64,000 bases of DNA from Halobacteriovoraceae bacterium. GTDB taxonomy: Bacteria > Bdellovibrionota > Bacteriovoracia > Bacteriovoracales > Bacteriovoracaceae. Every line of letters begins with the position of its first letter. Position 1 is the stretch's first letter. The stretch lies in NCBI GenBank assembly GCA_963719505.1, contig CAVRCF010000005.1, positions 736,001-800,000 of the forward strand, in the 5' to 3' direction. Shown in pieces: positions 10,563 through 30,639 of this stretch. Below the pieces are notes generated by a model. That model did not search any database. It worked only from the letters and a program-made list of their open reading frames with translations, and was not told the origin of the DNA. The translations under genes were made by a program, and so were the position numbers.

Positions 10563-10564
10563 AA

Positions 10565-15770: not shown

Positions 15771-15832
15771 GCGGTATTTGTATCACAATATGAAAAACTA
15801 GACAGTTAAAATCTTAAGGATATCTAAATTTT

Positions 15833-16450
15833 TTATAATTTGAAAAACTCTTTTATCCCCATCAATATATTATTTGCTGCCATTGAGGCTAAAATCAGTC
15901 CCATTACTTTACTGATAACAATAGCCCCAGAGTTTCCAATTCGGCGATGAATTTTATTCGATAGGATCATTAGGATATAGTTAATTAAAAGAATCAATGC
16001 CATAACAAGTGCTGTCATGACCTGATTAGACACACTGTGTCGTGTGTTGTCAGTCAAAAGTACTATTGCCAAAATAGCTCCCGGACTTGCAATGGAAGGT
16101 ATGGCCAGCGGAAAAATGGCTGCTTCGTCCTCATCCTTAACCAGCTGAATCTCTTCTTCTGGCTTACTGCTTCCAAAAATCATGTTAATTGCAAACAAAA
16201 ACAGGATAATTCCACCAGAGGCTTGAAAAGCAGCTAATGGTACTCCTATGGATTTTAAGACGATTTCCCCAACAATAAGAAAAAATAATAGGACTCCAAA
16301 GGAGACAAAAGAGGCAAACTTTGCGATCGCTTTCTTTTCAATCTCGTCATAGCCTTTTGTTACTGCGATAAAGACTGGCACTGTTCCAATGGGATCTATG
16401 ACAGACCAAAGAACAATAAAGGTACTTACAACGTCATCTAATTCAATCAA
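15833..16450 (-). CDS. MarC family membrane protein
   Basis: IDPIG.VPVF, FPLAIPSIASPGAI, MGLILA. Confidence 0.9.
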   Translation of the reverse strand: MIELDDVVSTFIVLWSVIDPIGTVPVFIAVTKGYDEIEKKAIAKFASFVSFGVLLFFLIVGEIVLKSIGVPLAAFQASGGIILFLFAINMIFGSSKPEEEIQLVKDEDEAAIFPLAIPSIASPGAILAIVLLTDNTRHSVSNQVMTALVMALILLINYILMILSNKIHRRIGNSGAIVISKVMGLILASMAANNILMGIKEFFKL

Positions 16451-16468
16451 AAATAAATCTCCTCTTTC

Positions 16469-17359
16469 CTATAAAGAAGATTTTATCTCATTAACAACTT
16501 CTTCGATAGCATTATTACTATGCTCAGACAGTATAAGTGCGCAAATTTTGGTTTTGGAAAAGGAGAAGTTTCCAATATGGAATAGTCTGCCCGCAATAAG
16601 TTCTTCGTTCACGGAAATTTTGGGAACAATAGAGAAACAACTATTCGACTCAGTTGCGGCTAGCATAATATCAATATTATCCGACTCTCCAACAACATTT
16701 GGTACAACCCCACATTCATAGAAGTACTTATCAACCTCTCGTTGAAGATGATTGAGAGGAGTATATTTAAAATATGGCATCCCATCTAAGTCATTTGGAA
16801 CAACAACTACTTTTTTTGAAAAATTCTCTCCACAAACAAAAACATACTCTGGTTTTTTAATATCGACGACTTCAATAGCATCACTTAGCTGGTGCTCGGC
16901 CAAACTTTCAGATAGAACAAAGTCTACTTCCCTTGCGTGCAGTTTATCGATGAGTCTCTCTGTTTCCACTTCAACAATACTGACGCCAATATCAGGCTTT
17001 TCAAAAAGAGGCTTTAGTAGCTTAGATGCGTATGTTCTACTAATTGAAGATGTTATCCCAATTTTGAAGTGAGATTTTGTATTCATTTGTTGTCTATAAG
17101 AAAAGCTTGAAACCATCAATTCTGCTTGAAAGAACATTTTCTTTGCAAAATCGAGAATATATTCACCCTGCTCATTTAACTTGAGGGCCCTACCATTTCT
17201 GTTAAAGAGCTTGTGTCCCATTTGTTTTTCCAATTGCTTTAATTGTTGGGAAAGTGTCGGCTGAGAGACATTGAGAACTTTAGTCGCTTTTGCCAAAGAT
17301 CCTTCAGATGCAATAACGAAAAAGTAATAGAGGTGATTAAAGTTGATGTTATTAAGCAT
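16469..17359 (-). CDS. LysR family regulator (NhaR-like)
   Basis: NFNHLYYF..ASEGS..SQPTLSQQLKQLE HTH. Confidence 0.9.
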   Translation of the reverse strand: MLNNINFNHLYYFFVIASEGSLAKATKVLNVSQPTLSQQLKQLEKQMGHKLFNRNGRALKLNEQGEYILDFAKKMFFQAELMVSSFSYRQQMNTKSHFKIGITSSISRTYASKLLKPLFEKPDIGVSIVEVETERLIDKLHAREVDFVLSESLAEHQLSDAIEVVDIKKPEYVFVCGENFSKKVVVVPNDLDGMPYFKYTPLNHLQREVDKYFYECGVVPNVVGESDNIDIMLAATESNSCFSIVPKISVNEELIAGRLFHIGNFSFSKTKICALILSEHSNNAIEEVVNEIKSSL

Positions 17360-17667
17360 TTCTTCCTCCTTAGATAGAAAATACCTATATAGATTAAAAT
17401 GCTTTTAATAATCATTATTCTTGTTTCAAGGTAAAAGCTGTGTAAAAAAAGCTACAAATTTTAATAAATTTGGCAATTAAAGCTGCCAGAGCTGACTTTA
17501 GCGTAACCTCAGAGAAGCTATAGTCATTGCAAAACATACTAACTACAAAAGTCATAAATAGCTGAAATCACTCAAATGCCAAAATTATTAAGAAAATTTA
17601 ACTCTTTGCTTGTCACTAAAATGACGATCTGTACTCTAATATTACTTTAATTTAATTCACCCAAAGG

Positions 17668-19116
17668 TTGAACGTCATGTTGGATAATACTATTGCTTCA
17701 ATTAGTACCTACTCTGATCTTATTATTTTTTTCGCGTATACCAGCATCGTGGCAATTCTCATCTACTATTTTTTTATTAAGCTGCACATGAAGTTGAATT
17801 TATTTTTCATCTCCTTCAGCGGATTTATTCTGGTGAGTGGGTTAAACCATTTAGCCATATTCTTAAATAGCTTCAACGACGTTATTTTCCTCGTTTCGAT
17901 TCTGAAAATATTAAAAGCTTTTACAGCTTTATTGGCAACTGTAACACTATGGCCTTTTGTCAGAGATGCTCTCTACTTAAAAAGTCTCACAGAGAATGAA
18001 AGACAGAAAAGAGACCTCAAGATCTTCAAAGAAGCCTATGAAGATGCATCAATTGGCTTGGCGCTCCTAGATAAACAAGGACAACTGCTGAAAGCCAACA
18101 AAGAGCTCATTAGACTTTTTGGTTATGGTGAGGAATATACTCTTCACAGCAACATATACAAATTTATTAATAAGGTTGAAGCCAAGAAAAACGAAGATCT
18201 GTTTAAAAAGATCTATAAAAGCTCAGATGAGGTCTTTGATTTTAAATTGAAGTTTGTTAAAAATTCTGGCGAGGATTTTTGGGGAAAAGTTCAGCTTAAA
18301 GTGCACAGGAAAGACTCTGGTGAAATCGACTTTATTTCTGTCCAGATTACCGATATAACCAGAGAACTCGAAATTGAAAAAGAGCTTCAACGAGAGAGGG
18401 TAAATGCCGAAAATGATAGAAAGCTCGAGTATCTAAAAAGTATGGCTTCAAGTGTAGCCCACGAAATAAATAATCCTCTAACAATCATCAGTGGAGCGGC
18501 ACAAATCATTGAGATTCTTCTAAAGAAAGAAGATATCGATAAAGAAAAAATAAACCAAGAGATTAAAGATACAACTGAGTCGGTGTTAAGAATATCTAAA
18601 ATTATAAAATCTCTCAAGATGCTCTCTAGTGAGAAAAAAGAGCAACTTGAAAGCATACCTGTCTCCTCTATTTTGGACAATGTCATTGAGCTATGCCAAG
18701 CAAAGTTTGTTTCAAACGGCGTCACATTTGAAGTGACACAAGATGAAGGTATCTTTTTGAAAAAAATTAACTGCAATAAAATGCATATGTCACAAGTTTT
18801 AATTAATATGCTAAACAATTCTTTTGAAGCTCTTGAGAACTTAGATGAAAAATGGATAAATATTAAGGTCTATCAAAAAGAACATTCAATAGTCTTCGAC
18901 ATAGTAGATAGTGGTCATGGTATAAATGAAGAAAATAAAAGCAAAATATATCTTCCATTTTACACGACAAAATCTCAAGGTGAGAATGCTGGTCTTGGTT
19001 TGAGCTACTCAAAGTCAGTCATTCAAAATTACAATGGATCTTTAGAACTAATTGAAGATAAAAATACAACCTTTAGAGTTTCACTTCCCTTTGAAAGTGA
19101 ATTAGAAGTCGCCTAA
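17668..19116 (+). CDS. PAS histidine kinase with ethylene-receptor-like 3-TM N-terminus
   Basis: SDLII..AY.SI and FIL.SG.NH TM motifs, PAS, AHEINNPL, GLGL. Confidence 0.85.
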   Translation: MNVMLDNTIASISTYSDLIIFFAYTSIVAILIYYFFIKLHMKLNLFFISFSGFILVSGLNHLAIFLNSFNDVIFLVSILKILKAFTALLATVTLWPFVRDALYLKSLTENERQKRDLKIFKEAYEDASIGLALLDKQGQLLKANKELIRLFGYGEEYTLHSNIYKFINKVEAKKNEDLFKKIYKSSDEVFDFKLKFVKNSGEDFWGKVQLKVHRKDSGEIDFISVQITDITRELEIEKELQRERVNAENDRKLEYLKSMASSVAHEINNPLTIISGAAQIIEILLKKEDIDKEKINQEIKDTTESVLRISKIIKSLKMLSSEKKEQLESIPVSSILDNVIELCQAKFVSNGVTFEVTQDEGIFLKKINCNKMHMSQVLINMLNNSFEALENLDEKWINIKVYQKEHSIVFDIVDSGHGINEENKSKIYLPFYTTKSQGENAGLGLSYSKSVIQNYNGSLELIEDKNTTFRVSLPFESELEVA

Positions 19117-19545
19117 AAGTTTTTCGTACTCAGAAACTAAACTGTCTGGATCATCACTTGACTGTTCTTTGGCTTCAAAGTTCTGTGACATTCCTCGAGT
19201 CACTGCACTCAGAAGATTTCCAAAGTGTGGCTTGTCGACAAAATCAAATGCACCATACTTAACGGCTTCTTTAACAAGGTTATCATCTCCATGGGAAGTG
19301 AAGAAAATAAAGGGGACTTCATTTTTTTTCTTTCTCACCTCTTTAACAAAATCAATTCCATTCATAACGGGCATATTGATATCGCTAACAACACAGCTAA
19401 TTCCTGGTTCCAGGGCCATCTTATCCAAAGCCTCTTGCCCATTGATGGCCGTAATAATACTCTCAACTTCCGAAGAAAGAATAGTTACTAGCTTATCCAA
19501 AATTTTAATCTCATCGTCGACGATAAGAAGAGTTTTTACTGACAT
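19102..19545 (-). CDS. Response regulator receiver protein
   Basis: IVDDE, SDINMPVMNG, GAFDFVDKP. Confidence 0.9.
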   Translation of the reverse strand: MSVKTLLIVDDEIKILDKLVTILSSEVESIITAINGQEALDKMALEPGISCVVSDINMPVMNGIDFVKEVRKKKNEVPFIFFTSHGDDNLVKEAVKYGAFDFVDKPHFGNLLSAVTRGMSQNFEAKEQSSDDPDSLVSEYEKLLGDF

Positions 19546-19728
19546 AATGGAATTCTCTCACTTAAAATATAAAAGTCACAGATTTTTTTAAGCAAATCTT
19601 ATTCGTTTAGAAAAAAGGGGGAAATCATCTATAAATTTATCAATAAAGGTATCATTTCCCAAAAAATTGATCTTATCGCCTTCACCTCTTATATTCCAAC
19701 GATTATTATTTACTACTTTCTTGATTAT

Positions 19729-20586
19729 ATGAATATTATTGAACCTCAGCAAAGGGTGACACCGATGCTTGTTTTCATAGGAGCTTTGATAGTGGATGGT
19801 GCCCATGTGTATTCAACATTATTCGTCACTTACTTTGATTCAAATATCAAAAGTAAAATTAAACTTCATTTGATCCTGGCCCCTTTGTTGACAATTTTGA
19901 TCTGCTATCTTCTTTATATTTATGAGTTTAAAGCCTTACTTCTTTCTTTAGTAGGAAGCTTTGCTCTTTTTCATTTCATTCGCCAAGAAGCTGGCTGGAT
20001 GAAATTAGCGGGAAGGCTCGACCCGAAGCAGCCGCAAATTCTCAATAAGGTAGATCTCTTTACCTCTTATATCTTTACGATAACTCCCGTTTTATATCTT
20101 ATATCAGAGAGGAATCGTGGCTTTTGGCTCTCCAGAGGAGATCTTCCTATCATCCCAAACCTTTACTGGGACACTGGGAAATACATAATGCTTTTTACCG
20201 GTTTGGTTTGGCTTGGCTTTAATATAAGACACTGGAGAAAAACCAAACTGATTAACGGCTCGAAACTTTTAATCATTCTTAGTAATCTCGCTGCTTGGTT
20301 TTTCGCCCTAACTTATCTTGCTGGATCTTGGCTAGGACTCCTTCTCATAATCCTCCCTCATGGAGTTCCCTACTTCTTTTTGGTCGCAAAGGAGCACAAT
20401 AAAAAATCTCCAAATAAGTTAACAATTTATCCTTTTCTATACCTACTTTGTGTTTTGTTATATTTTTTTGAAACAAGAGTTGGTGGTCTTAAAAATCCAA
20501 TATTGACATCAATTGCGATAATGCCTCAAATAGTTCACTACTATCTGGATGGAATCATTTGGAAGAGATCAATCCAATCTCGCTAA
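19729..20586 (+). CDS. Polytopic membrane protein with conserved-looking His motifs (true start may lie upstream, near 19627)
   Basis: Multiple TMs; DGAHVYST, HFIRQ..G, PHG.PY, HYYLDG.IWK. The frame stays open upstream without an ATG. Confidence 0.7.
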   Translation: MNIIEPQQRVTPMLVFIGALIVDGAHVYSTLFVTYFDSNIKSKIKLHLILAPLLTILICYLLYIYEFKALLLSLVGSFALFHFIRQEAGWMKLAGRLDPKQPQILNKVDLFTSYIFTITPVLYLISERNRGFWLSRGDLPIIPNLYWDTGKYIMLFTGLVWLGFNIRHWRKTKLINGSKLLIILSNLAAWFFALTYLAGSWLGLLLIILPHGVPYFFLVAKEHNKKSPNKLTIYPFLYLLCVLLYFFETRVGGLKNPILTSIAIMPQIVHYYLDGIIWKRSIQSR

Positions 20587-20640
20587 GCAACTGTTTTTAC
20601 TTATAGCCAGAGTAAATTTGGCTAATTTCTTGATTCAATA

Positions 20641-20669
20641 TTGAACAATATGCTACCTTTAAGTATAAA
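20641..20669 (+). promoter_or_regulatory. Candidate sigma70 promoter for the peptide/RRE operon
   Basis: TTGAAC-N17-TATAAA ending about 64 bp before the first peptide start. Confidence 0.45.
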
Positions 20670-20732
20670 CAAAAGTTTAATAAAATATAATCAGCACAAA
20701 ATCCACCCAAGTTTGTGACAGGGTGCTTTAAT

Positions 20733-20819
20733 GTGGATAAATTTAAAGAGTTTTTTGGTGAAATTAAAGTCACAATTCTAGATTTAGATCTTGAGGCACA
20801 AGATGATGCTGGAACATAA
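20733..20819 (+). CDS. Putative precursor peptide 1 (28 aa): MDKFKEFFGEIKVTILDLDLEAQDDAGT
   Basis: GTG start after RBS-like AGGGTG; shares the FFG-x-I-x-V-xx-(V/L)DLD motif with the downstream peptides. Confidence 0.7.
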   Translation: MDKFKEFFGEIKVTILDLDLEAQDDAGT

Positions 20820-20842
20820 TAAAAGTACAATAAGGTAAATGC

Positions 20843-20965
20843 ATGAAAGAGTTAGAAGACTTTTTTGGAACGATTGAAGTCAATCAAGTAGATCTCGATG
20901 AAAACGACTTAGAGATTTTTGCCAATATGGCGGCTGAAGAAACTCTAGAGAAGGCAATTGAGTAA
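20843..20965 (+). CDS. Putative precursor peptide 2 (40 aa): MKELEDFFGTIEVNQVDLDENDLEIFANMAAEETLEKAIE
   Basis: TAAGG RBS plus ATG; near-identical to the next ORF, with synonymous differences. Confidence 0.8.
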   Translation: MKELEDFFGTIEVNQVDLDENDLEIFANMAAEETLEKAIE

Positions 20966-20993
20966 AACTGAAAAAATACAATAAGGCAAAACT

Positions 20994-21116
20994 ATGGAAG
21001 AGGTAGAAGATTTTTTTGGAACGATTGAAGTCAATCAAGTAGATCTCGATGAAAACGACTTGGAGATTTTTGCCAATATGGCGGCTGAAGAAACTCTAGA
21101 GAAGGCAATTGAGTAA
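20994..21116 (+). CDS. Putative precursor peptide 3 (40 aa): MEEVEDFFGTIEVNQVDLDENDLEIFANMAAEETLEKAIE
   Basis: TAAGG RBS plus ATG; 151-bp offset from peptide 2. Confidence 0.8.
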   Translation: MEEVEDFFGTIEVNQVDLDENDLEIFANMAAEETLEKAIE

Positions 21117-21145
21117 AACTGAAAAAATACAATAAGGCAAAACTA

Positions 21146-21281
21146 ATGAAGAGTTAGAAGAATTTTTTAGAACATTAGAACAATTGAAGTCAATCAAGTA
21201 GATCTCGATGAAAATGACTTGGAGATTTTTGCCAATATGGCCCTCGAAGAGCCAACAAATAAAGAACTTTCATTTGAGTAA
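21146..21281 (+). pseudogene. Frameshifted peptide copy 4 with a different C-terminus (...IEVNQVDLDENDLEIFANMALEEPTNKELSFE)
   Basis: Same RBS, but ATG AAG AGT TAG (one base short of copy 2) plus an 8-bp duplication TTAGAACA at 21167-21182. Confidence 0.7.
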
Positions 21282-21296
21282 CCTCGGAGAAAAGAA

Positions 21297-21572
21297 ATGA
21301 ATAAAACATACTCTTTAAATCCAAGTCTTTTCTTCTCATCAAATGATGAAAAGTTAAATATTATTAGTCTAGAAGATAAGAATAACGAAGTTATATCTTT
21401 AACGAAAGTAAATGCTCTTATATTTCCAGATATCGTGGATGGAAAAACCCAAAATGAAATTCTTGAAAAAGTTAAAGCTCTACCCGACTGCCCGGAAGAG
21501 AAGGAAGTTGAAAAATATTTGTCTAATTTTCTCGTAAAATTAGAAGAATTGAACGTTATTGTTCCCAAATAA
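21297..21572 (+). CDS. Stand-alone PqqD-family protein / RiPP recognition element (RRE)
   Basis: 91 aa with a beta-rich N-half, then SLTKVNALIF..IVDGKT.NEI...EV..FL.KLEE.NVI, the PqqD/lasso-B1 pattern; RBS ggag. Confidence 0.75.
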   Translation: MNKTYSLNPSLFFSSNDEKLNIISLEDKNNEVISLTKVNALIFPDIVDGKTQNEILEKVKALPDCPEEKEVEKYLSNFLVKLEELNVIVPK

Positions 21573-22782
21573 AATCTTTCAAAAGAAGTTGAATAAATCG
21601 GCTCACTCCATCAATCGAATGTTGATCAGCATCAAGTCCAGAAAAGCGAAAACAACTATTTGCTTCATTGGTATTAGAATCCTCAAAAGCTCCTAAAAGA
21701 CATGAGTCCAGCCCAAAACTCGTGCCCCAAAAAACGGGAAGTTCAGCTTTTGCTTTGAGTTTATTAACTCTTAAGGCAAAATTCTCATCAGTTGATTTTA
21801 TCTTGATGAGCGAAAATAGCTCATGATGGACATTTGTTCTAAACGGCTTATGACCATGCTTAAGCACATTCACCTCTATATCTTTAAGATTTTTTTTGAA
21901 GCGCCCTACTCTTTTTAGGTTGAGATGATGATATTTCTCACTCCAAAAGAATGGAAGTATATTCTCTAAATTTGAAAATCCCCCATAACGTCCAAAATAG
22001 CGGTGAAAGAAATTTTCTGCACTCTTGTCTCTTTTTTCTTTAAAGCGATCAAAGTATTGAAGATTAAAAGCATAAAGACTTCCAAGTTGAGCATACTCCT
22101 CTCCAAAAGAGTCAGTCTTAATAAGACTCTTTATGATAAAAACAGCCGCACCTGAAGACTTAAGTTTTATAAAAACTTCTTTTTCAAGAAGTGAGCCTGT
22201 TAAAAGACAAGTCGCATCGACAACAATAATATCGTACGCTGAAAAATCAAGCGCCTCATAAGTTGAAGTCTCAGAAACACTATAATCAAGTATTAAGCAT
22301 CGATCTCCACCGCTTTGATCTTTCTGTTCTAAAGACTTAATAACTTTATTTGTGTCAAAATAAATGGACGTCACAGGTCTTACAAACTCAATATTAGTAT
22401 CGATTGATGTAACAAAAGTCAGCACGATCGCCATTGCACCTTGAGCGCTAGAGGTGAAAGCGGCAAACTCCTCACCACCGCCAATATCAACCAAAGAGTG
22501 GGGATGAATAAAACGAAACTTATTATCTCCCATAAACCTATACCCTTCCCTTGAATAAGTATAAGAGATGTTCTGACCATAGAAGTTGAGCGGCTTATTC
22601 ATCAGATTCGTTGTTGGAAATTCTATCTTATCGATTGCCTCTTTTCTGATGTGTCTAAAAAGATATTTTTTGGCAACTCTAATGTCTTCTGCACAATGAA
22701 CGGGATGAAGAGATGCCTTTACGCCAGCAAACGTACACAAATAGTCAATTTCCTCTCTTTTAGACTCAATATAGGATGACAC
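21556..22782 (-). CDS. Divergent PLP-dependent enzyme, Cys/Met metabolism (cystathionine gamma-synthase/lyase-like) family
   Basis: YSREG (cf. YSR.GNP), FTSSAQGAM (FSSGMAA), YFDT (YGGT), VVDAT (VVDNT), SLIK (S.TK lysine), TSFG, FRFS. Confidence 0.65.
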   Translation of the reverse strand: MSSYIESKREEIDYLCTFAGVKASLHPVHCAEDIRVAKKYLFRHIRKEAIDKIEFPTTNLMNKPLNFYGQNISYTYSREGYRFMGDNKFRFIHPHSLVDIGGGEEFAAFTSSAQGAMAIVLTFVTSIDTNIEFVRPVTSIYFDTNKVIKSLEQKDQSGGDRCLILDYSVSETSTYEALDFSAYDIIVVDATCLLTGSLLEKEVFIKLKSSGAAVFIIKSLIKTDSFGEEYAQLGSLYAFNLQYFDRFKEKRDKSAENFFHRYFGRYGGFSNLENILPFFWSEKYHHLNLKRVGRFKKNLKDIEVNVLKHGHKPFRTNVHHELFSLIKIKSTDENFALRVNKLKAKAELPVFWGTSFGLDSCLLGAFEDSNTNEANSCFRFSGLDADQHSIDGVSRFIQLLLKDFIWEQ

Positions 22783-24497
22783 ATATTCTCCGTAGATTTA
22801 AAATATCCTACATGAATCATAAAACAAAAACTGAACTCTTTGTAGGAATAAATTTGGGTCATCATGATGCAAGCTGTTGTGAACTCGATACAGCTTCTCA
22901 AAGTTTTACTATTTATGAAGAAGAAAGACTCTCAAGAGTTAAAAGTAGAGGGTTTTATCCCTTTTTATCTGTCAACCAACTTCAAAACTCTTCCTTCTCA
23001 AAGCTCGATAACAAACAGGAAGTAAAAGTTTCCTTCTCTAGCTTTATGACTGATATTGAAAAATCTTGGGAACTTTCTCAAAAGAAGAAAGAAGCTTCCT
23101 TTATTCTTCTCAACGAGAATTTTCAACCTAAGAAAATCTCAAAAAGTATAATCCATCATGAAGCTCACCTCTTTTCAGCCCTACCTCTTGTAGATACGAG
23201 CGCTGACTATCTTGTCGTCGTTGCTGACGGCTGTGGCAGTAACCTAGATGATCTAGAACTCCACTCTTTTTTTGATCAAGATACTTCTCAAGCGGAGGGC
23301 TATGAAATGATCTCAGCTTATTCTTGGCGGCAAAGATCACTAGAACAAGTGGATAAAAAGTGTAGCCTTCTGTATTGGAAGAAAAATAAAAAGGACTCCT
23401 TCTATCCAGCTTCATTTTTTACCAGTGCAGCTAAAATCGTCTTTGGAGATTGGAAGCATAGTGGAAAAGTCATGGGTCTTTCCGCTTACCACACCGGTGA
23501 GCTTTATTCTCGAGACGAGCTTTTTGATAAAATGTACAACGCCGAGGTTCCTGAAAAACTTGATCCGACGGCTTTTGATAATTTATCCGACCCCATTCTT
23601 AAAGAAAAACAAAAGATTTGTGCCAGTGTTCAGTACTACTATGAAGAGTTTATGTTCGAATACCTTGAGACTTTACAAAAAAAGACAAAGCTAAAAAATT
23701 TAATCTTAATTGGTGGCTGTGCTCTCAATTGTGTTTTTAATGAAAAGCTCAGAAAGAAAAAAATCTTTGCAAATATTTATGTCCCACCATGGCCAAATGA
23801 CGAAGGGATCTCTTTTGGTTCCACAGTGGCATCCTACTACAATGAAAACGCAAAACTCCCTCTTATTAAAAACACGAAGTCTCCCTTTAGGGGAATGAAT
23901 TTTCAATATAGCGAACGTGATATAATAGAACAGTTTAAGGATTATACAATTGAGCCTTTTAATATTAATACAGTTGTCGAGCTATTTATCAAAGGTGAAG
24001 TTATCGGTTGGTATGAAAATCAAAGTGAATGTGGACCACGGGCCCTTGGTCATCGCTCCATTTATGCTGACCCCTTTAAAGCCGGGATAAAAGACTTTCT
24101 TAATAGTAAGATTAAATTTAGAGAAAACTTTAGACCTTATGGATGCTCCATCTTAGAGGAGGACCAAAGCCTATTCTTTGAAGATCACCAAGGACTCAAC
24201 TCCCCCTTTATGTCATTTGCCCCCATAGTCTTAACTGAGCAAAGACAAAGGCTCAAGGAGGTTATACATAAGGATCAAAGTATACGAATTCAAACTGTCG
24301 ATGACACGTTTGACGGTTTAAAAAAGTTCTTAGAAAAAATTAAAGAAAAAAGAGGAAATTCTCTCATTATTCATACAAGCATGAATATTAATAAGATGCC
24401 CATTGTAAATTCCATTCATGATGCAAAGGAATTCTTTGCTAAAAGTAATATCAAATACATGGTCTTTAATGACTACTTAATCTCAAAGCCTGTATAA
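22776..24497 (+). CDS. O-carbamoyltransferase, NodU/CmcH/TobZ family
   Basis: HDAS, EEERLSRVK, HHEAH, DG.G, GKVMGLSAY, GGCALN, GPRALGHRSI, KFRENFRP, RIQTV; the start may be 22812. Confidence 0.92.
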   Translation: MTHILRRFKISYMNHKTKTELFVGINLGHHDASCCELDTASQSFTIYEEERLSRVKSRGFYPFLSVNQLQNSSFSKLDNKQEVKVSFSSFMTDIEKSWELSQKKKEASFILLNENFQPKKISKSIIHHEAHLFSALPLVDTSADYLVVVADGCGSNLDDLELHSFFDQDTSQAEGYEMISAYSWRQRSLEQVDKKCSLLYWKKNKKDSFYPASFFTSAAKIVFGDWKHSGKVMGLSAYHTGELYSRDELFDKMYNAEVPEKLDPTAFDNLSDPILKEKQKICASVQYYYEEFMFEYLETLQKKTKLKNLILIGGCALNCVFNEKLRKKKIFANIYVPPWPNDEGISFGSTVASYYNENAKLPLIKNTKSPFRGMNFQYSERDIIEQFKDYTIEPFNINTVVELFIKGEVIGWYENQSECGPRALGHRSIYADPFKAGIKDFLNSKIKFRENFRPYGCSILEEDQSLFFEDHQGLNSPFMSFAPIVLTEQRQRLKEVIHKDQSIRIQTVDDTFDGLKKFLEKIKEKRGNSLIIHTSMNINKMPIVNSIHDAKEFFAKSNIKYMVFNDYLISKPV

Positions 24498-25615
24498 CTA
24501 GAATATACTTCGCGATAGAGAGACTTTCCACTTTTTTTCCTAAAGGGAAAGCTTTTGCGATAGGTTTTAGAAAAAAGACGAAAAGTTTGGCTTTGCCCTA
24601 AGTACTCATTTTTTTGCTGAATGATTTCACTTATTTTAAGATTAAAGGATTCGTACGATAGCTGTGTTGAAAGATCGTGATCAACGATACTATTCACTCT
24701 CCCTTTCAAGCCCATAAGTGCGCTTAAAAGATTCTTTTTATTTATTCTTGGAATGAGATCTTCATCAACTTCTACGCCAACCATATCTGAGAAATCATTA
24801 TAAGCCCCATGCCCTCCCCAGTTGCTTAACACCAGTTGGTGCCCTTTTAAAAAGCCCTGGGCAATGCTTACGCCAAAATCTTCATCGTGGTAGGTACTCA
24901 TTGAAACCGAGTACTGACAGTTACCCATCACTTGTTCAAGAGAGCCTTGCTCTAGACTTCCATGATACTCAATTCCTCCATCTGACTTTTTAATCAAAGA
25001 GTAAAAAGTATCCTTAAAAACATTCATATCAACTTTATAGCCATGAAGATGATAGCCCCTATCGTGGAAATCTCCAGCTATATGAAGCTTTAACTGAGAA
25101 TTAAAACGTCTCGCATTGATAAAGACACTCATGAGTTCAAGAATATTTTTTTGAGGAGTTAACCTTCCTGCATAAATGAGACTTTTTCCCGCTGATGAAG
25201 TCACTATTGAAGGTTTCATAGGATAAGGAACAATATGACAAGCACCACTTTGAACCAAGCTTTGAATCTGATCTTTTGATCTTGGGCTGGCCGCAAGAAG
25301 TGAGACATTTTCTCCAAGTAAATTGTCTCCAATATAATTCCAGCGATCAAGTTCTACTGTCATATTTCCATAGACCGGTAAAATAAAATGATTTTTTTTA
25401 CCTAAAAGAGCGGAAAGTGAATCTTGCCACTTAAAATGGTCTGACATAAAAAATATATCTGATTCTGGCAAAATTGAATCAACCTGGGCGGGATCAATAT
25501 AATGAACTTCAAATGGAGCGCGATCAAGCGCCTCACAAATATACTTTTGAATGATATTACAACTAAGCCAGAAATGATCTTCATCCACTTTTAAGACATA
25601 AAGTTTATTCTTCAT
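24473..25615 (-). CDS. GT-B glycosyltransferase (GT4-like)
   Basis: YAGRLTPQKN, HIAG, EDFGVSIAQ, SNWGG; start moved to ATG 25615. Confidence 0.85.
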   Translation of the reverse strand: MKNKLYVLKVDEDHFWLSCNIIQKYICEALDRAPFEVHYIDPAQVDSILPESDIFFMSDHFKWQDSLSALLGKKNHFILPVYGNMTVELDRWNYIGDNLLGENVSLLAASPRSKDQIQSLVQSGACHIVPYPMKPSIVTSSAGKSLIYAGRLTPQKNILELMSVFINARRFNSQLKLHIAGDFHDRGYHLHGYKVDMNVFKDTFYSLIKKSDGGIEYHGSLEQGSLEQVMGNCQYSVSMSTYHDEDFGVSIAQGFLKGHQLVLSNWGGHGAYNDFSDMVGVEVDEDLIPRINKKNLLSALMGLKGRVNSIVDHDLSTQLSYESFNLKISEIIQQKNEYLGQSQTFRLFSKTYRKSFPFRKKSGKSLYREVYSSYTGFEIK

Positions 25616-26690
25616 AAAGGCCTTTAAAAAACGTTGCCTTAAGTTTTTGCAAAACTTTAAAATTTTGCGCAATAATAAAGAGGTACACAAAGTTTTTCCC
25701 TGGAGGGTTTAGAAACATAAAACCATTTCGATCTCCTTTTTTATAGACAGGCCAGCGAGATTCATCAAGAGAGAATCCTTTTTTAAAACTTAATTCAAAA
25801 AATTGTCCTACTCCCGATTCAGGCAAGAAATTTCGTAACTCAGCTAAAAGCGATCCCATATTAATCCTATAATTAACTTCACACAGGGGATAAATGCCAA
25901 TGCGATCTCCATCTTTAAATAAAAAACCATCAATCGTGAGATTTTGCTGAAGATCGAATTTCTTTAACTCCTCTAGCAGACTGATAGAAGTTGAGACTGC
26001 TTTATTGTAGTCTTCAAGAGCATCTAAGGATTTTAAGTAAATATCCTTATCTTCATTCTTATCAAAAATAAGCCCACCAAAGTAGTGACCAGTCTTGTTC
26101 ATCATCGTAAGATAATCGAAACTCTCATTCGTAACTGGATTATAGTGAATTGAATAGTCAAGAATTCTCTCATAGAAAGGCTCAAGAACCTTTACCTCTT
26201 TAAAAGGCTTTGCATCGGAAGCTCTTTCAATCACTTCAAAGCCTTGTCCCGCTTTGTAGAAGCAGTTCTTTAAAAGCCACTTTCTGTTTTTAAAATCAAT
26301 CTTTTTGAGATCGTGATCGGAAGTGAGAAAGTGAAAATCTTTTGGAAGGAGATTGTTCATCTCTAGAAATTTATAAGTCCAAGCTTTGGAATTTAAATTT
26401 TTCTCCAGCTCTATATCAGTTAACTTACCATACCAGTTAACAACTCCTCTTTCATCCTTTGTGAATCTTGGAATAATAAACCCAAATCCTTTCAACTTAT
26501 CGATAAAATCCACAGAATAATCCTCTAAAACAAAGAGTTCACAGTCTGGATCTTTATTGATGGCAAAAAATAAAAATTCAGCACATCCCCACACTTCTCG
26601 ATTTCTTAAAACTCGCTCTGGACTAAAGCCAAGTTCCTGCGCAAAGAGTTCAACTTCATACTCTGAATTTACTCTATATTTGATTGTCAT
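25605..26690 (-). CDS. ATP-grasp fold ligase-like protein
   Basis: LNSK, WLLK...AGQG, VLEPF.ERILDYS, IDG....IYPLCEVNYR. Confidence 0.75.
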   Translation of the reverse strand: MTIKYRVNSEYEVELFAQELGFSPERVLRNREVWGCAEFLFFAINKDPDCELFVLEDYSVDFIDKLKGFGFIIPRFTKDERGVVNWYGKLTDIELEKNLNSKAWTYKFLEMNNLLPKDFHFLTSDHDLKKIDFKNRKWLLKNCFYKAGQGFEVIERASDAKPFKEVKVLEPFYERILDYSIHYNPVTNESFDYLTMMNKTGHYFGGLIFDKNEDKDIYLKSLDALEDYNKAVSTSISLLEELKKFDLQQNLTIDGFLFKDGDRIGIYPLCEVNYRINMGSLLAELRNFLPESGVGQFFELSFKKGFSLDESRWPVYKKGDRNGFMFLNPPGKNFVYLFIIAQNFKVLQKLKATFFKGLYEE

Positions 26691-27694
26691 AGAAAAACGA
26701 TATCTGCTTGATCGATTCCGTTAAAGGAATGATTCCAAGCCGTAGAGTATCCACTTACATTTTCAACGATAATATTATCACCGATGCAAATACTTAGTGG
26801 ATCTAATTGAATAGTCGCTAAAACGTCACTCTCATAGCAGCTTGGACCTGCAACCTTTAAATCTTCATTCTTTTTCTCAGTAACAGGTTTACAATGCCTG
26901 TAGCGAATTTTTACTCTGTTATCAATCCATCTAAGATGGCAAGTTGGCGACAAAGAACAAATAATCGTTTTGTTGTAAAAAGCGAGAACTTTCCCAACCG
27001 CCACGCCGGAGCTTGCGGAAATCCATCTTCCAGGCTCAAAGTAGAGGGTTGTGTTGGGAAGGTTTTGATAGGCATATTTTGTTATACTTTTGATTTCATC
27101 AAGACTCAAAGGTGCGAAGCCCCCCCCAAAATTGATAGATAAGTTTCTGTTTGCTGCTATAGAGATGAGGCGATCAATCATTTCTTCATAGTCTGTTACT
27201 TTATTTTCTAACCCTCCAAAGTGAAGGTGTAGATGTTTAATGGATGGAAACTTGGCTAAAGTATCCTCTAAGTCATTTAATTTGACTCCAAAGCGAGAAC
27301 CCTCTCCAAGGAAGTCTGTCGATACTCGTAAGGAAATATTATCAAACTTGCTCACTCTACCCAAGTCCTCGAGGCAATTGATGTCATTGACTGAATTCTC
27401 TAAAGGTGAATAAAATGGTGAAGAATTCCAAACGATCTTTTTGTCGAGTTCGGAGATCAAATTTTGCTCGTTAATATTTGAAACATCAAATCCAAAAAGA
27501 AACTGTGAAGCAAGTTTAAGAACTTCGGTATTAGGAAATGACTTCACGGGAAAAAGAAACTTAACCCTATCATTTTCAAGGCTCTTAAGACCCTCAAAGT
27601 TTGCCAGCAAATCTTTTTTAGAAAAGTAGTAACAGGTACTTCTTTCCATGCTCTCAAACTCTCGTAAACAAACCTTAGTTGATAAATACTGCAT
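26687..27694 (-). CDS. PLP-dependent decarboxylase, fold type III (diaminopimelate/ornithine/carboxynorspermidine decarboxylase family)
   Basis: FPVKSFP (PLP lysine), SRFG, HLHFGG, NFGGGF, EPGRW, GPSCYESD, GYS; the start may be 27649. Confidence 0.88.
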   Translation of the reverse strand: MQYLSTKVCLREFESMERSTCYYFSKKDLLANFEGLKSLENDRVKFLFPVKSFPNTEVLKLASQFLFGFDVSNINEQNLISELDKKIVWNSSPFYSPLENSVNDINCLEDLGRVSKFDNISLRVSTDFLGEGSRFGVKLNDLEDTLAKFPSIKHLHLHFGGLENKVTDYEEMIDRLISIAANRNLSINFGGGFAPLSLDEIKSITKYAYQNLPNTTLYFEPGRWISASSGVAVGKVLAFYNKTIICSLSPTCHLRWIDNRVKIRYRHCKPVTEKKNEDLKVAGPSCYESDVLATIQLDPLSICIGDNIIVENVSGYSTAWNHSFNGIDQADIVFL

Positions 27695-27873
27695 TTTAAA
27701 ATTATAAGGAAACCCCGTTTTAATGGCAAGAAACCATTACCTGGTCCAAAAGACTAAATTTCAAAGGCTTAGCACTGCACAATAGTATGTAGACATAACC
27801 TTGTTTAAAGACTTTTAAAGGCCAAAGTCTAATTTATTTGCTATGGTCCTAAAAAATTAAAAGAGAGAAAACT

Positions 27874-28944
27874 ATGACAAATATAAAAATTGACCCAAAA
27901 GCCATTTCAAACCTAGAGAATTTTCAAAATCCAACAGATATTCAATTTGGAAAAACTTTAGTTCCAGCACTTTTAAAGTGTGAATATCGAGACGGTCAAT
28001 GGGGTGAGCTTGAATTCTTACCCTATCACAAGATACTCATTGATCCGGCAGCTAAGGTTCTTCATTACGCACAAGAAATTTTCGAAGGACTAAAAAGTTA
28101 TAAGAACGATGAAGATGAGGTTTTCTTATTTAGACCTGAAGAAAATGCAAAAAGATTCAATAAATCAGCAGTGAGAATGGGAATGCCTGAACTTCCGGAA
28201 GAGATCTTTATTGATTCTCTCAAGTGCTTAGTTAAGCACTCTCACCACACATTTTCTAAAGAGCTTGGAGATTCGTTTTATTTAAGACCTTTTATGTTCG
28301 GAGATGAACCTCAATTAGGTGTCAAACCATCTTCAACTTACCAATATTATCTTATTGGGGGCCCAGCAGGAAACTACTTCACAAAGCCCTCGGTGAAAGT
28401 CAGAGTTGAAAAAGAGTCCCACCGAGCATCTTCAAAAGGGATTGGAAGTGCAAAGACTGGTGGGAACTATGCTGCCAGTATGGCCGCAAATAAAGTGACC
28501 AGCGAGCAAAATTATGACCAAACACTTTGGCTTGACCCCGTCTATGGTGAGTTTATTGAGGAATTGTCAGGAATGAACTTCTTCGCAGTTATCGATGATG
28601 TTTTAGTGACACCTGAGCTTGGAAATTCAATTCTTCACGGAATAACGAGGGCATCACTTCTAGAGCTTGCCCAAAGCTTTGGTATAAAGGTTCAAGAAAA
28701 AAAGATTTCTATAAATGAACTTATGGACCAAATAGATTCCAAAAGTTGTACAGAGCTTTTTGCATCTGGAACGGCATCTGTTCTTACTCCAATAGAATGT
28801 TTGAAACTCGACGATAGAGAAGCATTCGTCAAACATCCAAATGGAAAAATATCAGTGAAATTAAAAGAAGCCCTTCAAAAACTTCAAACAGGTCGAAGTG
28901 AAGATCCTTTTAATTGGAGACAACAGGTCGATCTTACAAAATAA
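27874..28944 (+). CDS. ilvE: Branched-chain amino acid aminotransferase
   Basis: LHYAQEIFEGLK, YLRPF, AKTGGNYAAS, EELSGMNFF, ILHGITR, SGTA. Confidence 0.93.
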   Translation: MTNIKIDPKAISNLENFQNPTDIQFGKTLVPALLKCEYRDGQWGELEFLPYHKILIDPAAKVLHYAQEIFEGLKSYKNDEDEVFLFRPEENAKRFNKSAVRMGMPELPEEIFIDSLKCLVKHSHHTFSKELGDSFYLRPFMFGDEPQLGVKPSSTYQYYLIGGPAGNYFTKPSVKVRVEKESHRASSKGIGSAKTGGNYAASMAANKVTSEQNYDQTLWLDPVYGEFIEELSGMNFFAVIDDVLVTPELGNSILHGITRASLLELAQSFGIKVQEKKISINELMDQIDSKSCTELFASGTASVLTPIECLKLDDREAFVKHPNGKISVKLKEALQKLQTGRSEDPFNWRQQVDLTK

Positions 28945-28961: not shown

Positions 28962-29480
28962 TTAGTTATTGGGAACCCATTTTTTCAACTTCCTTTGAAG
29001 ACTCTGTCTATGAATACCAAGTTTCTTCGCAGTGTTTGAAATATTGCCTTTCTCTTTTGCAAGAATGTGTTCAATGTACTCGCGCTCGATGCGATCAAGG
29101 CTGAGCTCTCCCTCTCGAATATTGGCCTCTAATTTATTATCGATAAGGTCTATGACTTTCTTAAGATTAATCGGTTTCGTAATATAGTCAGAAGCTCCAA
29201 GCTTCATCGCCTCTACAGCGGAGGAGATAGTGCCAAAACCAGTCATCAGAAAAATCTCTGCAGCTTTAAACCTATCCAGACATGGAGCAATGAGATTAAG
29301 CCCAGAGAAATTTTTTAATCTTAAATCGATGAAGATATATTGGAAATCACCTTCAATATTTTCAATATGATGGTCGCAAATATAACGAACACTAAAGCGA
29401 CCACTATCATTTAGATCTAAGGTCAAACTTTCAGCAAATAATTCTTCATCGTCAATTATTAGAATATTTTCTTTAGTCAT
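28962..29480 (-). CDS. regA: RegA/PrrA/ActR-family response regulator
   Basis: DLRL...SGL, TGFGTISSAVEAMKLGA, EYI..L....GNISNTAKKLGIHRQSLQRKLKK. Confidence 0.8.
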   Translation of the reverse strand: MTKENILIIDDEELFAESLTLDLNDSGRFSVRYICDHHIENIEGDFQYIFIDLRLKNFSGLNLIAPCLDRFKAAEIFLMTGFGTISSAVEAMKLGASDYITKPINLKKVIDLIDNKLEANIREGELSLDRIEREYIEHILAKEKGNISNTAKKLGIHRQSLQRKLKKWVPNN

Positions 29481-30639
29481 CGATTATCCCTTCAAGATAA
29501 AGCTCAAGTACAGCTCCACTATTATTGTAGATATTTAGCGTTCCACCACAAGCTTCGAGCCCAAGGGCACAATTATAAAGTCCCAATCCCCTTCCTTGAC
29601 CTTTTGTCGTATTATAAGGTGCTTTAAAATTCTTTAAGATATAGTCTGAAAACCCCTCTCCTTCGTCCTCAATCTTTAGAAGAATCGAGCCATTTTTCTG
29701 AGTAAGACTAATACTAGCTTGTTTTAAATTTTCATCAATACAGTTTTGCATGCTATTTGAAATAAAAAGCTGAATGCTCAGAGCATTGGTTAAGGCAAAA
29801 ACATTAGATTGTATATTCGATTTGAAAGAAAAAGACTTTCCTTTTTGTAGGGCTAAAACTGTTGTTTCCAGAAGTTCCGACAAATTGATTCGCGTCATTT
29901 TGGCATGATCAAATCCAGACTGGGCAAGATTGAGATGATGAGTTGTCTGTTCTAATCTTTTGACACTTTTATCCAGTATATCCAAGTCGCGAGAAATAGC
30001 ATCCTCAGGTGAATCTCTAAGAAGTTTGTCTACTTTTAGTCTCACGGTATTGAGAGGTGTACCCAACTCGTGCACAATTCCTGAAACCAGAAGAGAAATC
30101 TGTCGGTTTTTTTCAAGAAGACTTCTCTTATTCTCTAAACTTCCAATCGTCTTTTGTTGCTTTAGAAAAAGAAGACCTAAACTTCTCATCGCGACCCACA
30201 TCCCTACAGTCAAAAGCACTTGTGGAACAAACGTGAACATAATAGAGGTAAAATCGTTAGAGGAACTCCAAAAGATCAAGATAATAAGAGAAAAAAGTAT
30301 AGGTAGATACAGATGATCCTGTTTTTTGGGCAAAACAAATGCGGCCATCATGATGTGAAAATAAATGAGATCCCAAAAAGGATTCTGAATTTTTCCGCAT
30401 AAAAGAATTAAAAGAATAAAAGAACACAGATCAAAAAGCAGATGAGTGAGAGCCCTGGGTTTTAGAAGATTAAACTGACATAAAATATTAAAAGAAAGAA
30501 TTCCTAACAAAGTAAGAATAACAAACGGGAGATTTTCATAAGGGAGGTAAATATACCTTATCGCGAAAGGAATCGCTAACATTTGCAATGAAAGCGCAAT
30601 CCACCTCAATTTGATTAGCCAATTCAAACTATTAATCAT
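29473..30639 (-). CDS. regB: RegB/PrrB-like sensor histidine kinase
   Basis: LIKLRW, G..QNPF, HELGTPL, TTK..GRGLGL. Confidence 0.7.
   Translation of the reverse strand: MINSLNWLIKLRWIALSLQMLAIPFAIRYIYLPYENLPFVILTLLGILSFNILCQFNLLKPRALTHLLFDLCSFILLILLCGKIQNPFWDLIYFHIMMAAFVLPKKQDHLYLPILFSLIILIFWSSSNDFTSIMFTFVPQVLLTVGMWVAMRSLGLLFLKQQKTIGSLENKRSLLEKNRQISLLVSGIVHELGTPLNTVRLKVDKLLRDSPEDAISRDLDILDKSVKRLEQTTHHLNLAQSGFDHAKMTRINLSELLETTVLALQKGKSFSFKSNIQSNVFALTNALSIQLFISNSMQNCIDENLKQASISLTQKNGSILLKIEDEGEGFSDYILKNFKAPYNTTKGQGRGLGLYNCALGLEACGGTLNIYNNSGAVLELYLEGIIDD

Follow-up and report, generated by a model that had tools for sequence, protein, structure and literature searches.

A candidate biosynthetic cluster of an undescribed RiPP family in Bacteriovoracaceae, combining precursor-like peptides, a stand-alone RRE and a divergent Cys/Met-type PLP enzyme

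We analyzed a 64,000-nt stretch of DNA (hereafter the window) from a Halobacteriovoraceae bacterium (assembly GCA_963719505.1, contig CAVRCF010000005.1, positions 736,001 to 800,000 of the forward strand). A set of peptide, RiPP recognition element (RRE) and enzyme genes at positions 19729-27694 of the window, which we confirmed from the list of open reading frames (ORFs) and from the raw sequence, is probably a genuine biosynthetic cluster of an undescribed family of peptides that are made by the ribosome and modified after translation (RiPPs). That the cluster is of RiPP type, with enzymes acting on a peptide bound by the RRE, appears highly likely. The region was singled out by an earlier reading of the letters of this DNA (hereafter the original prediction), and the gene coordinates given there correspond to genuine ORFs. 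GC-content is flat through the region (0.33-0.39). The cluster contains the following features:

19729..20586 (+): polytopic membrane protein, 285 aa, of no recognised family (ORF)
20733..20819 (+): precursor-like peptide 1, 28 aa from a GTG start (ORF; hidden Markov model (HMM) of the peptide family, 4.5e-5)
20843..20965 (+): precursor-like peptide 2, 40 aa, MKELEDFFGTIEVNQVDLDENDLEIFANMAAEETLEKAIE (ORF; family HMM, 7.9e-9)
20994..21116 (+): precursor-like peptide 3, 40 aa (ORF; family HMM, 6.4e-9)
about 21136..21284 (+): decayed fourth peptide copy (stop-to-stop frames; DNA alignment of the four copies)
21297..21572 (+): stand-alone PqqD-family RRE, 91 aa (family profile)
21556..22782 (-): divergent pyridoxal 5'-phosphate (PLP) enzyme of Cys/Met metabolism (gamma-family, fold-type I), 408 aa (AlphaFold2 (AF2) fold; large profile)
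22776..24497 (+): NodU/CmcH/TobZ-type carbamoyltransferase, 573 aa, with Kae1-like and YrdC-like domains (Pfam, NCBIfam, PDB)
24473..25690 (-): GT4-like (GT-B) glycosyltransferase (Pfam match below the cut-off; homologues pass)
25605..26690 (-): ATP-grasp ligase, 361 aa (AF2 fold and Foldseek)
26687..27694 (-): fold-III PLP decarboxylase, 335 aa (Pfam, NCBIfam, PDB)

Homologues of the 408-aa PLP enzyme were found in 24 of the 237 genomes of the bacterial family (Bacteriovoracaceae), distributed over 9 of its 69 genera. We compared 22 loci (the window, L011 and L051-L070), ten of which are cut by contig ends. The RRE is present in 19 of these loci and peptides of one HMM family in 15, to which one divergent peptide recognized by eye can be added (16 in total). 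The carbamoyltransferase is found in 16 loci, the decarboxylase in 13, the GT4 glycosyltransferase in 13, the membrane protein in 8 and the ATP-grasp protein in 4; four loci without GT4 carry a GT2, such that 17 of the 22 possess a glycosyltransferase. Gene order and strands vary among the loci, whose GC-content ranges from 30% to 60%. All seven genes recur in L011 (60% GC), rearranged and accompanied by a 2-oxoglutarate (2OG) oxygenase, and L058 presents one tightly overlapping operon in the order peptide, RRE, PLP enzyme, carbamoyltransferase, ATP-grasp and glycosyltransferase. At the level of sequence, the recurrence of the same motif and enzyme set, reordered and across 30-60% GC, is far beyond what chance would be expected to produce. 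As judged from gene content, the core of the system is the peptide, the RRE and the gamma-type PLP enzyme, usually with the carbamoyltransferase, the decarboxylase and a glycosyltransferase. The proposal of a functionally linked RiPP-like cluster with no matching class thus finds support in co-conservation over the 22 loci. The original prediction had also cautioned that the enzyme genes have mixed orientation and that their linkage followed from proximity only: the mixed orientation is true of the window, but linkage now rests on the L058 operon and the seven-gene recurrence in L011.

The direct neighbor of the RRE gene on the same strand is most often the carbamoyltransferase (10 loci), followed by the PLP enzyme (4 loci) and the GT2 (3 loci). 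Subsets of loci contain accessory genes for 2OG oxygenases, iron-dependent alcohol dehydrogenase (Fe-ADH), a Mem_trans carrier, an M6 peptidase, an acyltransferase, DUF418 and AsnB-like proteins; the M6 peptidase and the Mem_trans carrier are present in three related loci. In metagenomes, 20 loci repeat the pattern (some are the same DNA as loci from genomes), 11 of them with motif peptides, and up to four precursors stand beside one enzyme set (locus L097). The genome of the window contains only one such cluster.

The original prediction counted four related peptide genes directly upstream of the RRE gene. Three of these are intact. Alignment of the DNA of the four copies showed that the last one has lost its start codon (ATG to AAT), carries a Gly to Arg change in the FG motif and contains an 8-bp frameshifting insertion, indicating a decayed copy or pseudogene. 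Peptide 3 is identical to peptide 2 from residue 6 onward. Peptide 1 presents a divergent and shorter core (…DLDLEAQDDAGT) and could alternatively start at the GTG at 20715, which would yield 34 aa. Peptide 2 carries the motif D-[FY]-x-x-F-G-x-I, common to the peptides of related loci, and both the family HMM and the alignment across loci establish the peptides as a conserved family adjoining the RRE, as had been claimed. Searched singly against Pfam, NCBIfam and the PDB, the peptides returned nothing significant. In the alignment, the peptides begin with a polar N-terminal stretch whose length varies (it is almost missing from the window peptides), continue with a conserved middle segment D-[FY]-x-x-[FV]-G-x-I...[LI], in which the G is invariant and the D nearly so, and end in a hypervariable C-terminal part that often starts after an aromatic residue, Met or His followed by Ala or Ser. 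These C-terminal cores are acidic in the window; L052, L065 and L067 have cores rich in Arg, and L055 and L061 have cores rich in Pro. On alignment, this layout is that of a putative leader or recognition sequence followed by a core. Short precursor genes with a recognition segment and a variable core, as expected in general of RRE-dependent RiPPs, are therefore found in this cluster.

The 91-aa protein was predicted to be PqqD-like. Searched alone against Pfam and NCBIfam, its sequence only returned TIGR04353 at 0.088, below threshold. In contrast, a profile built from 17 homologues matched the lasso-peptide RRE TbiB1 (5v1u) in the PDB over its full length (7.7e-7) and further PqqD-family chaperones at 0.017-1.3, and nine of the 17 homologues match Pfam PqqD (best 4.6e-10). 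These results confirm the PqqD fold, and the PqqD-fold RRE generally expected of such RiPP systems is therefore identified by its family profile. A predicted complex of the RRE with peptide 2 scored 0.44, relative to 0.02 for the best of three controls, which lends weak support to binding; the pLDDT (predicted local distance difference test) of the partner was 58 and runs agreed in at least 88% of contacts. The mark set for this score is reached by 116 of 157 solved complexes and by 2 of 215 mismatches, and at scores of 0.60 or lower by 18 of the 157 solved complexes and both of the passing mismatches. Since solved RRE-leader complexes exist, the pass may reflect likeness only.

The PLP enzyme was assigned by its fold and by a large profile. 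Its sequence alone presented no match in Pfam or among PDB sequences, and a profile of 22 homologues returned nothing useful against the PDB; only the fold searches and a profile of 58 members placed the family. With the latter, 19 of 21 PDB matches were Cys/Met enzymes. The AF2 model (pLDDT 86.9) matched cystathionine gamma-lyase (CGL), cystathionine gamma-synthase (CGS), cystathionine beta-lyase (CBL), methionine gamma-lyase (MGL) or O-acetylhomoserine sulfhydrylase (OAHS) in all of the 50 best VIA matches (Z 19.6-20.8; 287-309 residues aligned; root-mean-square deviation 3.6-4.9), and Foldseek E-values reached down to 7.5e-9. The residues S219-x-x-K222, D189, Y76-x-R78 and R379 are invariant both in the 22 and in the 58 members. 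K222, within S219-x-x-K222, is the predicted PLP lysine, and the Y-x-Y-x-R segment aligns with YEYSR of CBL and CGL; we take S219, K222, D189, Y76 and R78 to provide the Schiff-base lysine, the Asp to the pyridine nitrogen and the phosphate motif. The call of a divergent Cys/Met-family enzyme is thereby upheld by fold and profile. The fold and the motifs are those of the gamma-family, but the Pfam gathering score is not reached: PF01053 was matched weakly by 4 of the 58 relatives (best 1.2e-4) and the window protein falls below the gathering score. This suggests a distant, separately evolving branch. The family has no Pfam model of its own, and it comprises 548 representative clusters at E ≤ 0.001 (255 at E ≤ 1e-30) among 1.84 billion proteins.

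The second PLP enzyme was correctly identified as a fold-III decarboxylase by Pfam, NCBIfam and the PDB. It matched Orn_Arg_deC_N at 1.3e-5 (PF02784; 25.2 bits, cut-off 23.4), as well as lysA (4e-12) and nspC (4e-10), although far below the equivalog cut-offs of the latter two. Its nearest solved relatives in the PDB are diaminopimelate (DAP), carboxynorspermidine and ornithine decarboxylases. Across 15 homologues, K51 (FPVKSFP), H156-x-H158, G190-G191, E220-P-G222 and E288-x-D290 are invariant, and the motifs of fold-III decarboxylases (PLP lysine, H-x-H-x-G, GGG, EPGR and C-x-E-x-D) are all present.

The decarboxylase and the PLP enzyme form a module of adjacent, often overlapping genes that recurs outside the bacterial family. 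In L085 (a Lysobacterales metagenome-assembled genome (MAG), 8677-17666), the pair stands with a PseB-like dehydratase, NeuB, DUF4910, a second ornithine/DAP decarboxylase and an ATP-grasp of the L-amino-acid-ligase type; neither an RRE nor a peptide was found in this locus of nonulosonic-acid type. In L109 (a metagenome contig of 63% GC, 2-8711), genes for a 2OG oxygenase and a B12-binding radical SAM enzyme lie upstream of the pair, and those for a ThiF-family enzyme and a GNAT protein are close by, a composition that recalls microcin-C-like operons (MccB, MccE). In L107, the neighbors of the pair encode an aminotransferase, a kinase and an oxygenase of PhyH type. This distribution fits a portable cassette that might install a substituent, and the non-peptide contexts suggest that the acceptor need not be a peptide. 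The original prediction had been staked on these enzymes keeping company with peptides or an RRE in relatives: the pair occurs without them outside the bacterial family (in L085, and in L109, where no search aimed at a precursor was made), whereas the RRE is present in 19 of the 22 loci within it.

The carbamoyltransferase presented both domains of the NodU/CmcH/TobZ family, Carbam_trans_C (PF16861; 5e-49, 166.6 bits, cut-off 27) and Carbam_trans_N (PF02543; 4.5e-19, 69.5 bits, cut-off 24), together with the H-H-x-x-H metal motif. H127-H128-x-x-H131, D151 and D342 are invariant in 16 homologues. In the PDB it matched 7xb6 (3.7e-43), GdmN (2e-30) and TobZ (4.6e-29), as well as NovN. The protein matched NodU of NCBIfam at 2.9e-37, yet it is not a NodU equivalog (128.7 relative to 1000 bits). 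The predicted NodU/CmcH assignment therefore stands. The GT4-like assignment stands in part: longer homologues in the same position pass Pfam (L060, 52.8 bits, 4e-14; L065, 74.8 bits, 8e-21), but the window protein remains under the cut-off for Glycos_transf_1 (3.9e-5; 23.7 relative to 26.4 bits). The glycosyltransferase presented no match among PDB sequences.

The ATP-grasp protein presented no Pfam match on its own, including to the ATP-grasp models. Its AF2 model (pLDDT 92.6) confirmed the predicted fold: the best Foldseek matches were the peptide ligase 8ynd (6e-12; template modelling (TM) score 0.62), PGM1 (3wvq/3wvr; 0.62-0.65), BesA (8yi6; 0.66) and PylC, with sequence identities of 10-14% to the closest folds. 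K102, D254, N273 and R275 are invariant and E271 is nearly so, such that the protein has the fold and the Mg/ATP ligands (K, D, E-x-N) of the superfamily. In L058 and L011, the ATP-grasp and carbamoyltransferase genes share a 4-nt overlap, with one or the other coming first, and in L057 (12835-15474, minus strand) the two constitute one 879-aa open frame, observed in one MAG and possibly an assembly error. This arrangement hints that the carbamoyltransferase and the ATP-grasp protein may act together. From this coupling and fusion came the idea of a PurK/carbamoyl-phosphate-synthetase-like ATP-grasp feeding the carbamoyltransferase, which we retain only as a remote prospect, given that PurK folds reached TM scores of 0.44-0.52 and peptide ligases 0.6-0.66. 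ATP-grasp homologues were found in 20 of 61 related genomes. We discarded the protein as an anchor or marker of the cluster: among the 20 loci around its homologues only L011 holds other cluster genes, and the remaining 19 lack every one of them. In these 19 loci (L012-L030), the paralogue, which has no Pfam match either, is always located in an operon, downstream of a DUF455 gene, and 17 of them also contain a Suv3-like DEXQ helicase. The genome of the window carries such a paralogue at C1:923690-924682. The catalytic motifs are intact in the PLP enzyme, the decarboxylase, the carbamoyltransferase and the ATP-grasp protein.

Searches of Pfam, NCBIfam and the PDB, including those with a profile of 10 members, left the membrane protein without a match, and its Atlas neighbors are all labeled 'hypothetical' and belong to unnamed clusters. 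Its homologues share invariant residues (D23/H26, H82-F-x-x-Q86, H211 and H270-x3-D274-x3-W278) and are sometimes duplicated within related loci. In the same genome we observed stand-alone paralogues of the membrane protein (C1:162899-163927; 1.4e-50), the glycosyltransferase (C1:191293-192570; 3.4e-68) and the carbamoyltransferase (C5:937215-939152; 645 aa, 1.2e-103); no peptide or RRE match was found near any of the three. The genome also contains a second RRE-type cluster (G000:C3, L090, 7763-13074), with a 60-aa peptide gene (7763-7945) and an overlapping PqqD gene (7927-8211; Pfam 3.4e-7), two GT4 glycosyltransferases, a 466-aa protein of no named family and a DUF6445 protein. This cluster appears to be a further pathway to a glycosylated peptide.

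The decarboxylase, ATP-grasp and glycosyltransferase genes form a minus-strand unit of three overlapping genes, in which the end of the decarboxylase overlaps the start of the ATP-grasp gene by 4 nt. The glycosyltransferase more likely starts at the ATG at 25615 (380 aa), overlapping the ATP-grasp stop, and homologues align from residue 26. The RRE and PLP enzyme genes converge with a 17-nt overlap (21556-21572), and the carbamoyltransferase and glycosyltransferase genes converge with a 25-nt overlap (24473-24497). As annotated, the genes of the PLP enzyme and the carbamoyltransferase overlap by 7 nt at their 5' ends (22776-22782), unless the latter starts at M13 (22812), which is possible. 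The best promoter match of the region (27701-27729, minus strand; TTGCCA-17-TATAAT, 11 of 12 positions of a sigma-70-like pattern, by pattern match only) lies directly upstream of the three-gene unit. The region contains 30 sigma-70-like sites, relative to 27.6 ± 5.4 in shuffled sequences, and terminators likewise showed no excess; these counts therefore provide no evidence for operons, with the exception of this one good -35/-10 match.

The neighboring genes do not appear to belong to the cluster. The identity of ilvE (27874-28944, plus strand) is secure (390 bits), but its proposed place in the block was abandoned: we found no homologue in any of the related loci, which makes it a bystander. 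Signaling genes flank the cluster on both sides, with a GAF hybrid kinase, a LysR regulator, an ETR1-N/PAS histidine kinase and a single-domain response regulator at 14154-19545 and a Fis-type response regulator with its kinase at 28962-30639. A LysR gene also neighbors the cluster in L059 and L061. The two-component systems were rejected as members: compared only against the loci around ATP-grasp homologues (ilvE was compared against both sets of loci), they gave response-regulator matches alone, in the paralogue loci L014 and L026 and not beside a cluster.

The following pathway could be envisaged for the cluster. The RRE would bind the conserved segment as its recognition sequence, and the variable C-terminal core would be presented to the enzymes. 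By gamma-replacement, the PLP enzyme would move a 3-amino-3-carboxypropyl unit from a free amino acid (O-acyl-homoserine, S-adenosylmethionine (SAM) or a donor of Met type) onto a nucleophilic group in the core peptide or in its sugar, and the fold-III decarboxylase would convert this unit into an aminopropyl amine (compare MccD/MccE and Mur24/Mur23). Both gamma-family PLP enzymes and fold-III decarboxylases use a free alpha-amino-acid moiety, and grafting followed by decarboxylation is thus the simplest use of both. Amino(carboxy)propylation by these two enzymes, drawn by analogy, is a tentative suggestion that we consider possible but doubtful. The carbamoyltransferase would then carbamoylate the amine or a hydroxyl (compare StdF and the crocagin enzyme), the GT4 would attach a sugar, and the membrane protein might take part in an additional modification or in export. 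In the four clusters that possess it, the PGM1/PylC-like ATP-grasp would make one extra amide bond. The original prediction included ligation by the ATP-grasp, in a chemical order that may run from the amine through ligation and carbamoylation to glycosylation. With the gene in only 4 of 22 loci, ligation by this enzyme is accessory and cannot be the core logic.

Read at its fullest, the cluster would represent a new RiPP class, found mainly in Bacteriovoracaceae so far and defined by a PLP-dependent gamma-replacement on an RRE-bound peptide followed by fold-III decarboxylation to a polyamine-like amine; we put this forward with considerable reserve. If true, this would be the first gamma-family PLP enzyme shown to act in the maturation of ribosomal peptides, the carbamoyltransferase, the glycosyltransferase and the His/Asp membrane enzyme would elaborate the amine further, and the decarboxylase and PLP enzyme together would constitute an 'aminopropylation cassette' that is portable and serves peptides, sugars and peptide-nucleotides alike.

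Several observations weigh against this interpretation. We infer every chemical step, and the RRE, the PLP enzyme, the ATP-grasp and the membrane protein of the window have no significant family match from their single sequences, their identities being drawn from profiles and predicted folds. The cluster was not found in the three other species of the same genus that were searched (completeness 82-90%). A divergent subgroup (L064, L066, L068 and L069) possesses the PLP enzyme without decarboxylase or carbamoyltransferase, with RRE and GT2 in three of the four loci, which indicates that the decarboxylase is not obligatory. The variable part of the peptides has no conserved nucleophilic residue; the only positions of the peptides that are invariant (G) or nearly so (D) belong to the motif. 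Neither a protease nor an exporter was found among the 15 window proteins and 6 flanking proteins scanned for protein families. Outside the bacterial family, the PLP enzyme lacks a detectable RRE or peptide in 6 of 7 loci, and L085 places it in a sugar context, suggesting that the pair could decorate a sugar rather than a peptide. Finally, Mur24 is ACC-synthase-like (1-aminocyclopropane-1-carboxylate synthase) and MccD is not a PLP enzyme; the precedents are therefore functional analogies and not homologues of the 408-aa protein.

An alternative is that the peptide serves as a reusable handle, as in scaffold- or carrier-peptide pathways (pearlin-like, LysW/amino-group carrier protein (AmCP)-like or BtrI/J/K-like), on which a small amine, amino-sugar or ureido product is built and then cleaved. 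The ATP-grasp or the PLP enzyme would attach an amino acid, and the decarboxylase, carbamoyltransferase and glycosyltransferase would tailor the product. Both PLP enzymes come from families that act on free alpha-amino-acid moieties, and neither a protease nor an exporter is found in the window, both consistent with this scheme. Window peptides 2 and 3 end in Glu, as LysW does, but C-termini are not conserved across loci, being acidic, Arg-rich (L052, L065, L067) or Pro-rich (L055, L061). The 4-nt overlap of decarboxylase and ATP-grasp genes in the window recalls BtrJ/BtrK as described in the butirosin section of PMC11350588, although the ATP-grasp is missing in 18 of 22 loci. No PEARL or LanB-like enzyme is present among the window proteins. 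Moreover, several different cores can accompany a single enzyme set (four precursors in L097), which is the usual mark of RiPP precursors that encode the product. We regard a carrier pathway, including this division of labor among the enzymes, as unlikely.

A second alternative is a glycopeptide with a decorated sugar, in which glycosylation and/or carbamoylation would depend on the RRE and the PLP-decarboxylase pair would modify the sugar or make its substituent. It overlaps with the RiPP-type pathway proposed above, from which it differs only in the acceptor atom. Of the 22 loci, 17 contain a glycosyltransferase together with the PLP enzyme (GT4 in 13, GT2 in 4), the second cluster of the genome combines PqqD, two GT4 and a peptide, and the pair of L085 lies in a NeuB/PseB-like context of nonulosonic-acid type without RRE or peptide. 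The carbamoyltransferase is homologous to TobZ, and TobZ-type enzymes typically carbamoylate sugar hydroxyls. However, no sugar-nucleotide biosynthesis genes were found in the window, and the usual coupling partner of the RRE is the carbamoyltransferase (10 loci) or else the PLP enzyme (4 loci), rather than the GT4. These results make a decorated sugar decidedly unlikely.

It is very improbable that these are cell-envelope genes for lipopolysaccharide or glycan tailoring that happen to adjoin unrelated small ORFs and a gene for a PqqD-like protein, with no peptide product: glycosyltransferases, membrane proteins and carbamoyltransferases are common in envelope loci and the decarboxylase-PLP pair does occur without RRE or peptide outside the bacterial family, but the RRE (19 of 22 loci) and the one-family peptides (16 of 22) are always located inside the cluster across 30-60% GC and shuffled gene orders, the single operon of L058 begins with the peptide and the peptide gene is tandemly multiplied.

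We searched the full-text literature and found no paper on this combination of enzymes or on any RiPP from Bacteriovoracaceae, most subscription journals and supplements lying outside the coverage of the search. RiPP pathways guided by an RRE are known; this set of enzymes has no precedent, and neither the PLP family nor the membrane protein has been characterised. What defines a RiPP class is its enzymes, and each novel enzyme logic has given access to new chemistry and to new handles for genome mining. The present system joins a leader peptide and RRE to two PLP enzymes, a carbamoyltransferase and a glycosyltransferase. It also constitutes a resource, with a precursor motif, HMM-ready families and about 30 loci of natural core diversity (acidic, Arg-rich and Pro-rich), which makes the chemistry directly testable. 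Bacteriovoracaceae prey obligately on other bacteria and little is known of their secondary metabolism, and the peptides of this cluster could bear on prey killing or signaling.

We compared the cluster to known systems. As the original prediction had stated, no radical SAM enzyme, YcaO, lanthionine synthetase, lasso cyclase, protease or exporter was found among the scanned proteins of the window and its flanks. The lasso RREs TbiB1 and TfuB1 belong, like the window RRE, to the PqqD family and are small stand-alone leader-binding proteins, TbiB1 being the best solved relative. Lasso systems, however, possess an asparagine-synthase-like cyclase and a transglutaminase-like B2 leader peptidase, neither of which is found among the window proteins, and their leader motif differs from that of the window peptides; the cluster thus does not belong to the lasso class. 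An AsnB-like gene adjoins only two related loci (L060, L062). Among ATP-grasp enzymes, PGM1 (pheganomycin), BesA and PylC have the folds closest to the 361-aa protein (TM 0.6-0.66), and PGM1 ligates a non-proteinogenic acid to a ribosomal peptide. In graspetides (microviridin-type) the ATP-grasp is the class-defining enzyme and makes macrolactones or lactams between side chains; here it is absent from 18 of 22 loci and its nearest folds are PGM1, PylC and BesA, such that the cluster falls outside this class as well.

The closest chemical parallels are microcin C and the muraymycin-type nucleosides. In microcin C, whose scaffold is a derivative of a ribosomal peptide, transfer of a 3-amino-3-carboxypropyl group by MccD is followed by the action of the N-terminal PLP decarboxylase of MccE, yielding an aminopropyl group (section on these enzymes in PMC11350588). 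In the muraymycin type, the PLP-dependent Mur24 is followed by the fold-III Mur23, as outlined in the relevant parts of PMC10491745 and PMC11350588, and the latter describes Mur23 (group IV) as decarboxylating a nucleoside-bound substrate. The window shares with these systems a fold-III decarboxylase with all motifs and a PLP enzyme of a gamma-replacement family, paired in many loci. The first-step enzymes differ, MccD being SAM-dependent and non-PLP, Mur24 ACC-synthase-like and the 408-aa protein CGS/CGL-like. Loline biosynthesis employs a comparable pair, the CGS-like LolC and the ornithine-decarboxylase-like LolD. Microcin C-like systems also have the ThiF/MccB adenylyltransferase and a precursor of heptapeptide type with a C-terminal Asn; no ThiF is found among the window proteins and the peptides do not end in Asn, which sets the cluster apart from microcin C-like systems. 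Only in the distant locus L109 does a ThiF gene stand beside the decarboxylase-PLP pair.

Carbamoylation has been described in RiPPs. The NodU-like StdF carbamoylates a peptide lysine to homocitrulline, and crocagin is named as the only other RiPP with a carbamoyltransferase in the portion of PMC13174530 that treats this step; fusions of RRE and carbamoyltransferase are noted from bioinformatics in a passage of PMC12710340. As far as these passages describe them, StdF and the crocagin enzyme are, as in the window, enzymes of the NodU/TobZ family inside a RiPP cluster. According to the same account, StdF forms a fusion with an S8/S53 peptidase and acts together with YcaO-TfuA and an MNIO (multinuclear non-heme iron-dependent oxidative) enzyme, none of which is found in the window. 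In contrast, the window carbamoyltransferase is stand-alone, and across loci the enzyme is usually translationally coupled to a discrete RRE.

Two further systems share parts of this logic. In butirosin biosynthesis, BtrJ ligates Glu via its side chain to a carrier, on which the PLP decarboxylase BtrK then acts, and adjacent ATP-grasp and fold-III decarboxylase genes are found there as in the window (butirosin section of PMC11350588). The butirosin carrier is an acyl carrier protein with a thioester, whereas the window encodes ribosomal peptides with an RRE and no acyl carrier protein. Daptide clusters combine the RRE protein MpaB, the Fe-ADH MpaC and the aminotransferase MpaD, and a PLP enzyme places an amine on a ribosomal peptide (daptide section of PMC11350588). 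They resemble the present cluster in being RRE-guided pathways that use a PLP enzyme, and an Fe-ADH gene is present in three related loci. The window itself contains no Fe-ADH, aminotransferase or methyltransferase, and its PLP enzyme differs from that of daptides in belonging to the gamma-family.

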